Of a DNA stretch of 64,000 bases, positions 4,512 through 64,000 are shown piece after piece; the first letter of the stretch is position 1; each line of letters begins with the position of its first letter. Both the position numbers and the translations under genes were made by a program. The DNA is taken from NCBI GenBank assembly GCA_965215275.1, contig OZ244044.1:1152001-1216000 (forward strand). Direction: 5' to 3'. The notes under the pieces were generated by a model, which saw only the letters and a list, made by a program, of their open reading frames with translations, was not told the origin of the DNA and ran no database searches. Origin of the DNA: Thermodesulfobacteriota bacterium. Its GTDB lineage: Bacteria; Desulfobacterota_D; UBA1144; Nemesobacterales; JAJCZQ01.

Positions 4512-7009
4512 ATGAACATCCTGTTTAGAGTAACACCCCCCCCCATAAGTTATTAATTCCCTTTTTCTTTCTTCTGTGCTTTGTAAACGTTGGTGCATAT
4601 GGTCAGACCAGCGTTGATAACTGCGACTCCAGTGCAACGACAGAAGCTACATTGACAGTAGCCGGAAGTACACGTAGTGGAAGTTTAGCTGCCGGTGCTG
4701 ATCCGCATTACTTTCAGATAGACGTGAATGAAAGATTGATCGTGGCTATAATAGTAACCTTCCCCTTCTCCAATGATCAGGGATACAGTTTACAGGTATG
4801 TGACAGCAATAATTATCTGATAGCAAGTGCTGCTGGAGTTCGTATTGAGGATGAGGGTATAGTGAAGGTCACTATAGAAACCCGCCTCAGACCTGGAACG
4901 TACTATATAGTAGTGGGAAGCCGTGTTGCCACGTCCTACAATGTTGCAGTTGTGGTATCTGATCTTAATACTGTATTTGATGATGACTGCCCGGAAAGTA
5001 GTACTACAAATTATCCAAACGACACCTTATACGGTTGTCAGTGGTATCTGAAACGTCAGGCGGGTGAGTTTATATTAGGTGAAAAGACAATACCCGATAC
5101 GGAATATGCAGACATAAACATAGAAGAGGTCTGGGATGATAACGTATTTGGAGCTGAGATTAACGTAGCGGTGGTAGATCATGGCATGGACACAGATCAT
5201 GAGGACCTTGCTGATAACGTGGATACTACACTTTCTCATGATTACTCAGGAAGCGGTGATCTGTACAGTCCTTTCAGTGGTCGCGGCACACGTGTGGCAG
5301 GCATTATAGCAGCAGTGGGTGATAACAGCCTTGGAGTAAGAGGTGTAGCACCTCAGGCAAGCATCTACAGTTATAATTTAGCTGATAACTTCAGTGATAC
5401 TAATGCAAAGGACGCCATGGTCCGTAATAAGGATATAACGGCTGTATCTGTCAACAACTGGGGACCGAAGGACCTGCCGGTTCTTACAGAGGCTTCATCA
5501 GAGTGGGAAGAAGGAGTGGAAACTGGTATAAGAGAAGGATTTGGTGGTAAAGGAGTATTTTACGTATGGGCGGCAGGGGACGGACATGAAGGATCAGACC
5601 AGGCTAATTTTAATGAGTATTCCAACTACTACGCTGTAACTACCGTATGTTCATCAGAGATCGATAGTCATGATAGCTTGATCACTAAGGGTTCGAGTAC
5701 TTTTTCAGAAGAAGGGTTCAATCTATGGGTATGTGCACCGGGTTCTTATATTGTAACTACGGACAATAACGACATTTATACTTTTGAGTTCCCTGGAACG
5801 TCAAATTCAGCTGCTGTTGTTTCAGGAGTAGCGGCACTGATACGGGAGGTAAACAGTGATCTTAGCTGGCGGGATCTGAAACTGATCCTGGCAGATTCAG
5901 CCAGCCAGGGAGACACCCAGTTAATTCCTGTTAGTGATAATTGGAAACCAGGAGCATTTAAATACAGTTCTGATTCAGAACGTTATCGTTACAGTCCGAA
6001 GTTCGGTTTTGGCACGGTAGACGCTGCTGCGGCAGTAGAACTTGCAGGAAGCTGGACCAACGTTCCACCGCCAATGAGACCCGTGACGGTTTCCTCGGGT
6101 AATATCAATACAGTTATCCCGGACTTCACAACGGGAAACTCAGAAGAAGATGTTTCCGTCGTTTTCACACTGACAGTACCTGATATAGATATACCAGACA
6201 CTGAGGGCTTTACGGAATTTATAGAGATCGGTATTAATTTCACTCACCCTTTCTTTCCTTTTTTAAGTATAGAAATAACTTCCCCTGACGGTAGAGTGTC
6301 AAAACTCACTGAGGCATATCCAGCAGAAGCTTTATCACTTTTATTATCTGGCAGATCTCTTACTGTAGACGACTTTGACTATACAGGCAGAGAGCATCGT
6401 TTTGGTTTAGCTAATCACTTGGGAACGGACCCTGCCGGAGAGTGGACCTTGAAGATAACCAACGCTTCAGTCGCAGGTGCGGGGACCTTACACTCATGGA
6501 ACATTAAGGTCTATGGTCATATGTCTGGTGAGACACCTACGTTCGGCGGCTGGACGATACCAGATAAGAATTACGTGCCGGGAACCGCAGTAAAGGAAAC
6601 ACTGCCTGAGGCAACAGCAGGGAATGGAGAACTGACCTACAGCCTTTCCCCTCTTTCTTTACCTGCTGGACTTACTTTCAGTGAAACTGACCGAGTGATT
6701 AGCGGAACACCAACTGCTGTATCTTCCGGCAGTTATACATATACGGTAACGGATGAAGATGGAGATAAGGATGAGCTGAGATTTACTATCAGGGTAACAA
6801 CTACGCCGCCAGAACCAACAGACCCACCAACAACAAGACCACCGACACGAAGACCGACATCATCAGGTACAGGCGGAGGTGGAGGAGGATGTGCGGTCTC
6901 CGATCAGAGCAAAACTGTTCCTGATCTGCTCGCAGCAGTAGCATCTCTGATGCTTATACCTGTATCCGTAGTTATCAGAAGGAAGATAAGGTCTCGGATA
7001 AAGACTTAG
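4512..7009 (+). CDS. Kexin/subtilase-like (S8) surface protein, probably inactive: signal peptide, PPC-like domain, S8 domain, P-domain, one Ig-like repeat, Pro/Thr linker, GGGGGC-TM-basic tail; frameshifted at a C9 tract
   Basis: VAVVD, RGTRVAG (His replaced), AAGDG, GTS, LSWRD, GFG and GEWTLKI motifs. The frame extends upstream of the track's TTG 4652 into a signal peptide (HKLLIPFFFLLCFVNVGAYG) that joins ATG 4512 only if the tract is C10 or C7. Confidence 0.85.
4536..4544 (+). repeat. C9 homopolymer, candidate contingency locus
   Basis: ACA-CCCCCCCCC-ATAAG, 24 nt after ATG 4512. Confidence 0.9.
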
Positions 7010-60090: not shown

Positions 60091-60119
60091 TTGACATCCG
60101 TTCATAATACGAGTAAAAT
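60091..60119 (+). promoter_or_regulatory. Sigma70-type promoter of S8-like gene 2
   Basis: TTGACA-N17-TAAAAT, homologous to 4472-4501. Confidence 0.7.
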
Positions 60120-60128
60120 ATCAATGTT

Positions 60129-63100
60129 ATGAAAATACCAAACATAAAAACATGTAGTTCCATTACCCCCCCCCGTGTATACCTGAACTTTCAACCTGGT
60201 ATAAGTATTTTGTAAGAACAATGTTTAAGATAATACCCCCCCCCATCTAAGTCATTACTAACGTTAGTCTTATTTCTTCTGATTATTATGGTCATAGCTG
60301 CAAAAGGGCAGAGCAGCCTGGAAGAAACATTATCTGAATGCAGAGGAATCAGTGCAGACACGGAAGATCCGTTATACGGATGTCAGTGGCATCTGAAAAA
60401 TACAGGACAGCTTGGTTTTTCCGGAAAGGAAATAACTGCAGGAGAAGATATAAACATAGAGGGAGTGTGGAACGAAGAGGTATATGGTACAGGAATTAAC
60501 GTAGCAGTAGTAAGCGACGGCATTGACCTTTCACATGAGGACCTTTCTGCAAACGTTCGTTCCGGACCGAACTATGATCATTCAGACAGTTCATCTTTTA
60601 GTGGAACACGAGCGGCAGGAGTTATAGCAGCAACTGGATATAACGGACTGGGAGTAAGAGGAACTGCACCTGGTGCGAGTATATACAGTTACAGGTTATC
60701 CGGTGATCTCAGTGAAGCGGACGCGGTGGTCCGTAATAAGGAAATAACAGCAGTATCGGTTAACGGCCGGGGATCTGAGGACGGAGCTTTTTTTCAGGAG
60801 GCTTCATCTTCCTGGGAAGAAGGAGTGGAACTTGGTATAAAGAAAGGGTTTTATGGTAAAGGAGTGTTTTACGTCCGGGGAGCAGGGGACGGGCATGAAA
60901 GAGGAGATCAGGCTAATTTTAATGAATATTCCAGCTATTACGGAGTAACAGCCGTTTGTTCAACTGACGGTTTTGGAAAAAAGAGTATTTTTTCAGAAGA
61001 GGGAGTAACTCTATGGGTATGTGCACCTGGTTCTGATATTGTAACCACTGATAACAACAACGATTACGTTGTAACTTCCGGAACATTTCTATCAGCTTCA
61101 CAGGTTGGAGGAGTGGCAGCACTGCTGAGAGAGATAAACGACCAGCTGAGCTGGAGGGATATAAAGCTTATACTTGCGGGTTCAGCACGGCAGAACGACG
61201 TTTCTGACCTTAGCTGGGAGACTGGAGCGGTTAAATACGGCTCTGACACGGAAAGATATAAATATAATCCTAAGTATGGTTTTGGTGTGGTTGACGCAGA
61301 AGCAGCCGCAGAACTTGCCAGAAGCTGGAAAGGCGTTGGAGAAATGAGGACCGTTACCGCCTTTTCAGATAAAGAAATAACAATTCCTGATGGAGAAGGA
61401 AATGGAGAAGGAGAGGCAGACGGGGTCCTTGTCTCAAGACTTATTATCCCTGACCTGGAAGAAACAACGTTTACGGAGTTCACAGAAGTTGAACTTGTTC
61501 TCTCGTGTGACTGCTTACAGGACCTTAATATACAGATAACCTCTCCTTCCGGAACAGTATCTGAACTTGTGCGGGAGTTTGTAAGTGGACCTTCGGATGA
61601 AGAAAAAAACTGCGTCAGTTACCTGAGAAGAACACATCGTTTCGGGTCGGCTAAACACCTCGGAGAAGACCCTTCCGGAGAATGGGTCCTTAAAATATCC
61701 GATACTGCTTCCGGAGATACAGAAAATGAAAAAAACACTGTTACCTTACACTCATGGAGCATTAAGGTATACGGGAATTTTTATCAGGAACATGGCAGTG
61801 AGATAAGTGCTAAACATCATGATCTTAGTTTTGGTGGTGCGACAGTTCCGGATCAAATCTACAGAGTAGGAACACAAGTAAACTACAGGTTGCCTAGTGC
61901 AAGTGGAGGGGGTGGTGGACGTACATATAGTTTATCTCCTCGTTTACCTGCTGGATTGGACCGTCAAAACATATTAGTAATAAGAGGAACACCAACTACT
62001 GTAACACCTAATACACTTTATACATTAACTGCTACAGGTTTCAACGGAGATAAGGATAGTCTAACGTTCAATATCACAGTAAAAGAACCTGACACATCAC
62101 CAACCTTTTCAGGAGCAACGGTCCCTGAACAGATATGGACGGAAGGGGTAAGGATACCAACGTTACGTTTTCCTAATGCAACGGGAGGTAACGGAACTTT
62201 AACATACTTTTTAAGTCCTGCGCAGCCAGTTGGTATCAGCAGACAGGACAACAGGTTATTCGGAACACCTACGGAAACTCAAAGAAGATCTCGTTATACA
62301 TGGACAGTCAGAGACAAAGATGATGATGAAGATTCTATTCAGTTCTATATTACTGTAAGAGAGAACGTCCCTACCTTCGGAGGTCAGACAATACCTCAGC
62401 AGAATTATATAGTAGGCAGAACAATACAAAGATTAGTATTTCCTCGTGCAACGGGAGAGGAGCCGTTAACTTACAATTTAGAAGGAGGTCCGACTAATTT
62501 ACCAGGTGGATTGAACTTAGTAAGTAATCCAACAAGTATAATCGGAACACCAACTACAACGGCGGACATTAATTACAGATGGACAGTTACGGACAAAGAT
62601 GGAGATAAGACAGAACTTCCGTTCAGGATGAAGATAAGAACTGCATCTGAAGTACCGGACTTCGGCAGTGAGACGGTAGAAGATCAGGTGTGGGGTAACG
62701 GCAGAGCAGTAACGTTAACTCTGCCTCAGGCAACGGGAGGGGATGGAACTTTAAATTACAGTTTAAGCGGTGTAATACCAAATGGACTTATTTTTAACAG
62801 TAACACCAGAACGTTAAGTGGAACGCTCGACGTTGCTGCTCCAAGTGTATTACCCATAACTCTTTCATATACTTACAAGGTAACTGACTCTGACTCAGAT
62901 GATGACGGGGATTCTGACAGTATTACTTTCTCTATTACTATAGAAACTAACCAAGAACCGAGCTTTGGAGGTCAGTCAATTCCTGATCAGATATATATTC
63001 AAGGGACAACGGTAGGTCTTCCGGTAACGCTTCCTGCTGCCACTGGTGGTAATTCTCCACTTGTTTATAGTATCTCTCCTGCTTTACCTTCTGGATTGAG

Positions 63101-64000
63101 CTTTGAGCCTGCTACCAGAGAGATAAGCGGAGCACCAACTAATATTTCGGGTTTGATAACAAATTATACATATAAGGTAACGGACAGTGATGGAGATACG
63201 GCTAATCTGAGTTTCCGCCTGCAAATAATCGGTAACACCCAGCCAGTCTTTAATAATACGATAACAGATAAGGTGTATTATACGTTTACAGGAGTAACGG
63301 AAACGTTACCTGAGGCAGCACAAAATAATAATCCACCTTCAACTTACAGTTTAACTCCTGCATTACCTGATGGACTGAGATTTACCCCTGCTACCAGAGA
63401 GATAACAGGAACACCGACCACTGCAATGTCTGAGACTGATTATACGTATACGGTTGCTGATCTAAATGGAGATACGGATGATCTGACGTTCAGCATAACT
63501 GTATTAGCAGGAACTGACACGGAACCAACCTTTGGCAGTGAGAGTATAGATAATAAGGTGTACATTAACGGCATTACAGCAGTAACGTTAACTCTGCCTG
63601 CTGCTACTGGAGGGGATGGGACTTTAACTTACAGTTTAGAGAGGGACCCTGGAGATGGTATTTTCACTACTGCTTTATTTAAGGGATTGACATTTACTGC
63701 AAACACCAGAGAGTTAAGCGGAACACCCAATCTTGATATTCATCCAAGTCTATTTCCTGCAACTCAGGATCATAAATATGAAGTAACAGACAATGATGGA
63801 GATACAGCAGAGATAACGTTCAGTATAACAATAGAAGAAGACAGCGAACCGGACTTCAGCGGTGTGACAATACCAGATCGTGTGTACACGGGGAGAACAA
63901 TAGAGCTGCCAGAGGCAGCGGGAGGGAATTTACCGGTTACATACAGTATAACACCTGATCTGCCAGCTGGATTGAGATTTAACGAAGTAACGCGGGAAAT
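60129..64000 (+). CDS. Large kexin/subtilase-like pseudo-protease with P-domain and at least 8 Ig-like (He_PIG-like) repeats; runs off the window; 5' end interrupted by two C9 tracts
   Basis: Absent from the ORF track. By hand translation the frame is open from 60234 to the window end (>1240 codons): signal peptide SKSLLTLVLFLLIIMVIAAKG, DPLYGCQWHLKN, LSWRDIK, GFGVVDA, GEWVLKI, then PxFG..IPD...D.DGD repeats. True start 60129 or 60221; first in-frame ATG is 60288. Confidence 0.88.
60166..60174 (+). repeat. C9 homopolymer (tract 1 of gene 2)
   Basis: ATTA-CCCCCCCCC-GTG. Confidence 0.9.
60236..60244 (+). repeat. C9 homopolymer (tract 2 of gene 2)
   Basis: ATAATA-CCCCCCCCC-ATCTAAG. Confidence 0.9.
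61824..64000 (+). repeat. Tandem 90-108 aa Ig-like repeats
   Basis: Units start near 61824, 62100, 62370, 62655, 62958, 63243, 63525 and 63849 with LSFG/PTFS/PTFG/PDFG/PSFG/PVFN/PTFG/PDFS. Confidence 0.85.

Follow-up and report, generated by a model that had tools for sequence, protein, structure and literature searches.

The window considered here is a 64,000-nt stretch of contig OZ244044.1 (assembly GCA_965215275.1, positions 1,152,001 to 1,216,000 of the forward strand) from a Thermodesulfobacteriota bacterium. Near its downstream end lies gene 2, which encodes a kexin-like protein of the S8 peptidase family in which the residues of the catalytic triad have been replaced. Gene 2 is one of 57 frames in this genome that encode a kexin-type head, 29 of which have lost the triad, and a second member of the family, gene 1, is found near the start of the same window. 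An earlier note, made from the sequence alone, had described gene 2 as a pseudo-convertase with an intact frame and had proposed that its head is under selection for binding, perhaps shielding or mimicking the targets of host furin-like convertases.

Gene 2: domains, catalytic site and fold

The protein encoded by gene 2 begins with a putative signal peptide, recognised from the sequence itself, which is followed by an S8 domain, a proprotein-convertase P-domain and a stalk of immunoglobulin-like (Ig-like) repeats (Table 1). The matches to S8, P_proprotein and He_PIG each lie above their Pfam cut-offs, and these matches, with a kexin fold in the structural model, bear out the earlier view that the structural motifs and the P-domain are preserved. 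Beyond the window, the C-terminus consists of GGGGGGC, then a hydrophobic stretch and then a basic cluster. The stop-free frame of more than 1240 codons that had been reported is present downstream of 60234, where its full extent is 1354 codons, but the description of the frame as intact does not hold upstream, where the start is out of frame.

Alignment with Kex2 (E 1e-33) pairs the motifs AAIVDDG/VAVVSDG, YHGT/FSGT, ASGNG/GAGDG and GTSA/GTFL (Kex2/gene 2). The four substitutions singled out in the earlier note, at 60513, 60600, 60888 and 61086, are all found there and all fall on catalytic positions. The best solved relatives of gene 2 are Kex2, furin and the Aeromonas protease ASP. An AlphaFold2 model of the head, built from 62 sequences (mean predicted local distance difference test score, pLDDT, of 76; predicted template modelling score, pTM, of 0.85), was matched by Foldseek to Kex2 and furin with template modelling (TM) scores of about 0.81 at 25-26% identity. 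In the Kex2 alignment, gene 2 keeps the Asp that adjoins the lost catalytic Asp, as well as the Asp of the SEDG loop. Of the features that mark an active S8B peptidase, gene 2 has the S8 domain with P-domain and the kexin fold, and lacks both the Asp-His-Ser triad and a propeptide. The alignment, the model and the selection estimates given below support the classification of the head as an S8 non-peptidase homologue that has kept the fold, has lost the catalytic residues and is under selection; it is predicted to be inactive.

A replacement triad elsewhere in the fold was considered and rejected on sequence grounds, as the His residues conserved in the triad-less clade all occur in most or all of the intact genes too. 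With no His fixed in the 29 triad-less genes but missing from the intact ones, another triad is unlikely to have taken over, and the first of the two outcomes that the earlier note had named as fatal to its reading was not encountered at the level of sequence.

Only 19 residues separate the presumed mature start (60309) from the S8 domain (60366), and Pfam detects no propeptide family in gene 2, in agreement with the earlier statement that the domain begins almost directly after the signal peptide. No propeptide family was matched in the five intact paralogs scanned either. The intact paralogs have 120-140 extra N-terminal residues that are PPC-like in look; the Pfam match to PPC is weak (E 0.006) and was obtained in one of the five scanned, and the copy of this region in gene 1 has Atlas matches at 0.95 to PPC clusters, among others. 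The absence of a propeptide is not peculiar to gene 2, and a PPC-like domain seems to stand in its place in the intact paralogs.

Table 1. Features of gene 2 and its paralog gene 1, in coordinates of the window
Feature	Position	Strand	Basis or remark
sigma70-type promoter-like site, TTGACA-17-TAAAAT	60091..60119	+	Pattern; kept upstream of most paralogs; putative function
Promoter-proximal ATG, 28 codons to a stop 5 nt ahead of the second ATG, off phase	60129..60215	+	Reading-frame scoring
Poly-C tract 1 (C9), candidate slipped-strand switch	60166..60174	+	Tract census
Second ATG, start of signal-peptide n-region, 9 codons to a stop, off phase	60221..60250	+	Frame scoring
Main open frame, 1354 codons	60234..64000	+	Ends at G000:C1:1216298, 298 bases beyond the window
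Poly-C tract 2 (C9), fixes frame between second ATG and signal-peptide core	60236..60244	+	Tract census
Hydrophobic core and putative cleavage region of signal peptide, main frame	60245..60308	+	Translation
S8B/kexin-type pseudo-peptidase domain	60366..61334	+	Pfam PF00082, E 2.9e-21; Kex2 alignment; model; Foldseek
Catalytic Asp position, now Ser	60513..60515	+	Kex2 alignment, translation
Catalytic His position, now Ser	60600..60602	+	Kex2 alignment, translation
Trp of SWG substrate-binding strand, now Arg (21/29 in clade)	60768..60770	+	Alignment
Trp (other paralogs) before oxyanion motif, now Arg (21/29)	60876..60878	+	Alignment
Oxyanion Asn position, now Asp	60888..60890	+	Kex2 alignment, translation
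Nucleophilic Ser position, now Phe	61086..61088	+	Kex2 alignment, translation
Proprotein-convertase P-domain	61344..61775	+	Pfam PF01483, E 3.1e-12
Stalk, 8 He_PIG-type Ig-like repeats, the last crossing the window end	61824..64000	+	Pfam and repeat hidden Markov model (HMM)
Gene 1, paralog of the Asp-Arg-Asp-Ser clade (10 copies)	4529..7009	+	Own C9 tract at 4536-4544, off phase too

Family census and relatives

The genome is a single contig of 1.99 Mb, and the 57 frames with a kexin-type head span 175 kb, or 8.8% of it. Written as the residues at the Asp/His/Asn/Ser positions, the states in these frames are DHNS (6), DHDS (1), DRDS (10, the class of gene 1), DRDA (5), DRNA (2), triad-less (29) and odd or partial (4). 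The triad-less class is made up of SSDF (11), STDF (9), SSDV (4), STDV (4) and GTDF (1). Of 102 heads aligned from elsewhere, 91 are DHNS; these 102 consist of the 120 best protein matches, less 47 that correspond to genes of this genome itself, together with 22 of 24 genome loci and seven distant S8 proteins of relatives. Tabulation over the 57 own and 102 outside heads, a check that the earlier note had suggested, shows within this genome a graded series that leads from DHNS to the triad-less forms. Unbroken frames of 780-1390 codons are found in 26 of the 29 triad-less genes, and a downstream break is present in five of the 57 family genes, three of them triad-less.

The named relatives are proteins from metagenome-assembled genomes (MAGs) of Dehalococcoidia, Tepidiformaceae and Acidimicrobiia (Chloroflexota, Actinomycetota), at 38-49% identity, and a metagenome scan detected four loci at 40-42%. 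Close relatives, including the dead forms DRDS, ARDA and STDL, occur in other assemblies (dead forms in P0019, P0029, P0053, P0057 and P0063), and the family is therefore not an assembly artefact. With these queries, no close homologues were found in 30 related genomes (best 32% identity) or in four other genomes of the same taxonomic family, two of which are just 80-83% complete. Judging from this distribution, the family was likely acquired by transfer and expanded afterwards.

Three further features of the family were observed. At G000:C1:421709-427645 (coordinates on the contig of this genome), two family genes converge, with near-identical C-terminal tails and a third tail fragment between them, and this arrangement is a possible hub of inversion or recombination. 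Two head-less genes, at G000:C1:627284-628603 and G000:C1:1649106-1650047, combine a PPC-like domain with the poly-C cassette and the Cys tail described below, without an S8 domain. Finally, many triad-less paralogs have five-residue repeats rich in Ser, Asn and Glu, in varying number, in the loop before the former His (the region of 60570-60600 in the window); gene 2 lacks them.

Order of catalytic loss

A quick tree was built, with support from the Shimodaira-Hasegawa-like approximate likelihood ratio test (SH-aLRT); it leaves out two partial paralogs and takes in 28 of the 102 outside rows. The genes of this genome group with their close relatives in a single clade (SH-aLRT 100). The intact genes are basal in it, DHDS is next, and there follows a 53-row clade (99), almost all of whose members lack the His. 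The 30 triad-less rows sit deepest, nested within the 53-row clade (SH-aLRT 100). Codons at the His position are one step apart (CAT>CGT>AGT), and those at the Ser position can be arranged as TCA>GCA>GTC>TTC, with one synonymous step between. Judging by its codon, the Arg of gene 1 is probably intermediate to the Ser of gene 2 at the His position.

The earlier note had left open whether inactivation was progressive or independent. Because the clades are nested and the codon states are one step apart, progressive loss is favoured, and independent loss is the less well supported of the two. Each of the four groups gives a recombination signal (0 of 1000 permutations), and the single SHDA gene is a mosaic, so that the fine order of loss is uncertain.

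Selection on head, cleft and stalk

Selection was measured by counting methods, as pairwise ratios of nonsynonymous to synonymous substitution (dN/dS) and as the corresponding ratios for segregating changes (pN/pS). In the 29 triad-less genes, pairwise dN/dS is 0.285 for the S8 domain and 0.272 for the P-domain, compared with 0.36 and 0.51 in the intact six. The pN/pS of the S8 domain is 0.28 (95% interval 0.23-0.33) in the triad-less genes and 0.35 in the six intact genes; in the former, the cleft motifs and the P-domain are both at 0.32. These values support purifying selection on the dead heads, and with it the proposal of a pseudo-convertase head under selection; the neutral evolution that would have undone that proposal is at odds with them. 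Neutral decay of the dead heads was rejected on a pN/pS of about 0.3, a signal that gene conversion can carry between copies.

The cleft has been remodelled and not simply stripped. Arg has replaced Trp161 in 21 of the 29 triad-less genes and Trp197 likewise in 21, where the other paralogs have Trp at both sites, and it has replaced Asn136 in 19.

Heads and stalks differ sharply in their constancy. Median identity is 82% for heads and 50% for stalks, the latter being 204-804 residues long (28 genes), and no two repeat arrays are the same (29 arrays in 29 triad-less genes). At matched synonymous divergence, pN/pS is 0.32-0.37 in heads and 0.50-0.65 in close repeat pairs, the repeat figure being drawn from 333 close pairs among 163 repeats, which are not independent of one another. 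The 163 repeats were delimited by a split based on an HMM; a pattern-based split caught 71. The stalk is the diversified part of these proteins and the head is the conserved part.

The Asp-Arg-Asp-Ser clade, composed of gene 1 and nine paralogs, has a pattern of its own. Its remodelled cleft is nearly invariant (32 of 35 columns, pN/pS 0.08), and each gene has exactly one Ig repeat. This clade is a candidate for a specific ligand site or for non-canonical chemistry.

Poly-C tracts and the off state of gene 2

Gene 2 is off as assembled, because both upstream ATGs run into stops (Table 1) and the in-frame ATG at 60288, which sits at the end of the signal-peptide core, would give no signal peptide. 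A long G/C run in the first codons that fixes the reading frame, the mark of homopolymer contingency loci, is present in gene 2. Contigs from run X1 span both tracts of gene 2 without a gap and with the same tract lengths, and an assembly slip is therefore an improbable cause of the off state, with the reservations that X1 possibly comes from the source study itself and that the flanks of tract 2 are identical in one paralog.

The arrangement is characteristic of the family. A 5' tract of C8-C13 is found in 50 of the 57 frames, and 28 genes have two tracts. The seven frames without one are the six DHNS genes, none of which has a tract, and the downstream part of a gene that an internal G13 divides in two. 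The promoter-like pattern occurs in 49 of the 52 tract-bearing genes scored, and in 45 of these 49 an ATG follows the -10 hexamer at a distance of 9-10 nt. Few copies are in frame: 11 of 50 from some nearby ATG and six of 49 from the promoter-proximal ATG. Among the 27 two-tract genes scored, one is in frame from the first ATG and five from the second. If the promoter-proximal ATG is used, the two runs would act as an AND gate; if translation restarts at the second ATG, tract 1 may instead tune the level of expression.

C/G runs of at least 8 nt number 139 in the genome, compared with about 13 expected from base composition, and 80 of them lie within 200 nt of the starts of family frames. There are 78 runs of length 6 and none of exactly 7. 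By eye, the frames behind the other runs resemble DNA methyltransferases, tetratricopeptide repeat (TPR) proteins, sulfotransferases and lipoproteins, which are the usual classes of contingency genes. Loss of mismatch repair was considered as a cause of the tracts and rejected, as MutS and MutL are both present.

Variation in length was seen at one C12 tract with unique flanks, which was compared across four runs over 20 kb. The tract is C11 in X1 and X5, C12 in X2 and apparently mixed in X4, and in the 5189-nt X1 contig that covers it the tract length is the sole difference.

Several other loci with such runs deserve mention. In the family gene at G000:C1:513692-518958 (-), which retains both His and Ser, a G13 run interrupts the frame immediately ahead of the catalytic Asp motif and another run lies close to the start; the product is possibly a switchable active protease. 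A second multi-copy family, TPR-like by eye, has 5' poly-C tracts at G000:C1:19539, 20737, 31545, 1068992, 1899949, 1901573, 1914729 and 1964984. Three related lipoprotein-like genes (G000:C1:94069, 1295437 and 1301357) have G/C runs just ahead of the ATG, outside the frame, and here switching at the ribosome-binding site or the promoter is possible.

Surface anchoring

A Cys-type C-terminal tail ends 52 of the 57 family frames. The sole gene for a CPBP/Rce1-type protease in the genome, G000:C1:680830-681114 (-), lies directly upstream of a family gene, and its product is a candidate sortase for the Cys tail. A GspD-type secretin is encoded within the window. In Myxococcus, a CPBP protease is described as cutting Cys-type tails so that the proteins are anchored at the surface, and secretion by the type II pathway is predicted (PMC11980579); related Cys-type sorting signals have been reported (10.1101/2023.06.07.544157). 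By analogy, the signal peptide, the tail and the CPBP neighbour suggest that the family proteins are displayed on the surface.

A phase-variable surface coat and its alternatives

The preferred reading, to which a probability of roughly 0.65 is assigned, is that the family is a phase-variable, recombining and non-enzymatic set of coat proteins or adhesins on the cell surface, of which gene 2 is a copy that is currently off. Many paralogs, recombination mosaics and most copies off at once, the traits of multigene families for antigenic variation, are all found here. Slippage in the C runs would switch each copy on or off, leaving a cell to display only a small number of copies; for the 28 genes with two tracts, initiation at the promoter-proximal ATG would demand that both tracts be in frame at once. 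A protein in the on phase would be exported via its signal peptide, cut and anchored at the Cys tail by the single CPBP protease of the genome, and surfaced through a type II secretion system. The conserved, dead head may be a stable cap or a constant binding unit atop the stalk, and the shuffled Ig repeats would alter the length and surface of the coat against recognition by a host or by phage.

A more specific history is offered tentatively. A symbiont may have built an antigenically variable coat of some 50 pseudo-convertases from a kexin gained by horizontal transfer, with the poly-C switch arriving together with catalytic loss. The doubled switch would then be a two-tract AND gate on a near-leaderless message, by which no more than one or a few of the 29 triad-less copies would be on in each cell, giving near-exclusive expression without a dedicated expression site.

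Several observations weigh against a phase-variable coat. The association of catalytic loss with the tracts belongs to one clade and hence counts as one event, not 50, although the correspondence between the two has no exception. Sequencing error in homopolymers could contribute to the single length-variable tract, and four unique C8-C10 tracts in the same 20 kb have no listed indel across the four runs, so that short tracts, including the C9 runs of gene 2, may switch rarely. Indels are listed at gene 2's own tracts, where they are indistinguishable from paralogs, and one in-frame copy is also in frame in two other assemblies (P0053 and P0127 against P0128). Gene conversion can hold pN/pS low without selection on each copy, and three of the 29 triad-less genes are broken downstream. 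No NCBIfam sorting-signal model matched the tail in four full-length proteins (E up to 10) or in the gene 1 tail alone. Lastly, host association is presumed from genome size and gene content.

The alternative that survives best, although improbable, retains the idea of phase-variable adhesins and assigns all binding to the Ig repeats, the dead head being only a module for folding or export that is needed by type II secretion or by the fold. A constant head on a diversified stalk is what this would predict, and the cleft motifs are no more constrained than the remainder of the head in the triad-less genes (pN/pS 0.32 vs 0.28), the sites once occupied by His, Ser and Trp varying between two states. 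However, the two head-less genes (G000 627284 and 1649106) share the cassette and the tail, which implies that the pathway does not require a head, and in the Asp-Arg-Asp-Ser clade the near-invariant cleft (32/35 columns, pN/pS 0.08) and the single repeat point to a function of the head itself.

There is a small chance that the dead heads are decoys or regulators, which would act as a sink for protease inhibitors of the host or partner the six intact paralogs in the way that CspC pairs with CspA. S8 pseudoproteases with signalling roles are described, such as CspC (PMC6636752), a CspC:CspA heterodimer is reported, expanded S8 proteases are reported beside serpins in a sponge archaeon (PMC6790972), and intact, tract-free paralogs do coexist with the dead copies here. 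Yet a cleft filled by Phe or Val and Arg would probably suit canonical inhibitors badly, neither the 29 copies nor the diversity of their 29 stalks is called for in a regulator, and gene 2 scores 22 against a cut-off of 675 with the CspC model.

Comparably unlikely is the suggestion that the copies are a silent and decaying pool of donors, in which expression is limited to a few copies and the others are maintained through duplication and gene conversion. It would account for the number of copies that are off, the strong recombination and the downstream breaks in 5/57 genes, but not for the retention of a promoter-like site and tract in 49/52, for unbroken frames in 26/29 triad-less genes, for a pN/pS of about 0.3 in head and P-domain, or for the dead forms in five other assemblies.

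Least credible is the earlier suggestion that the head binds and shields polybasic sites on which furin-like convertases of a host would act: gene 2 shares its fold with Kex2 and furin (TM 0.81) and retains the two Asp residues noted above, but the family is of bacterial origin (38-49% identity to bacterial MAG proteins vs 25-26% to furin and Kex2), and furin specificity is not indicated even for the intact paralogs. Since the cleft of furin is acidic and binds Arg-rich sites, the newly gained arginines argue against such binding, and the two Trp to Arg changes together with Asn136 to Arg would be expected to repel Arg-rich sites.

Comparison with known systems

In its combination of S8 and P-domains, gene 2 resembles the S8B enzymes Kex2, furin and Aeromonas sobria ASP, which are also its best matches in sequence and fold; ASP is described as a propeptide-deficient kexin with an external chaperone (PMC5638518). 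Unlike these enzymes, gene 2 is without the catalytic Asp, His and Ser, and has an Ig-repeat stalk, a C-terminal tail, 57 copies in its family and a poly-C switch. In CspC and CspA of Clostridioides difficile, as in gene 2, a bacterial subtilisin fold has been kept after the loss of catalytic residues, there with a non-enzymatic role (PMC6636752). CspC, however, has retained its Asp as well as a prodomain that is not cleaved, contains a jelly-roll insertion, and is soluble and single-copy, whereas in gene 2 all three residues are lost and a P-domain, a multi-copy family and an anchor are found. Against the CspC model NF040808, gene 2 scores 22 bits (cut-off 675), and it has a P-domain rather than a jelly-roll.

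The protease NalP of Neisseria meningitidis is subtilisin-like. It is likewise a surface protein, and is switched by a poly-C tract of 6-15 bp in its coding sequence (PMC3723659). NalP is one active autotransporter, whereas the switch here is found in about 50 inactive paralogs, 28 of them with two tracts in series, and the intact proteases are without any. The PRT1/kexin family of Pneumocystis carinii is also comparable: this organism, restricted to its host, has 39 copies of kexin, and surface anchoring is predicted for many of them (PMC4764891). Pneumocystis differs in being a eukaryote and in using a glycosylphosphatidylinositol (GPI) anchor, and the available part of that source mentions neither catalytic loss nor homopolymer switching (PMC4764891).

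The tail is similar to the MYXO-, JDVT-, Synerg- and CGP-CTERM signals in its invariant Cys motif, hydrophobic helix and basic cluster, in the single CPBP gene beside a substrate gene and in the presence of a type II secretion secretin, and is unlike them in that it matches no NCBIfam model. In the sponge archaeon, the 11 S8 genes are interpreted as nutritional (PMC6790972). Searches of open-licence papers brought up no switchable multigene family of triad-less kexins.

Implications

If the preferred reading is correct, a multigene variable-surface system of the kind used by pathogens has been built from a pseudo-convertase and takes up 8.8% of a 2-Mb genome. The series D-H-N-S, D-H-D-S, D-R-D-S, D-R-D-A and S-S/T-D-F/V is a rare natural record of how a pseudoenzyme originates and of what it is kept for. 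The two-tract leader provides a testable design by which each copy would be expressed in a smaller fraction of cells. Should the organism be a symbiont of an invertebrate, as its genome suggests, it may become testable whether hosts that lack antibodies, or phages, drive the switching of the coat.

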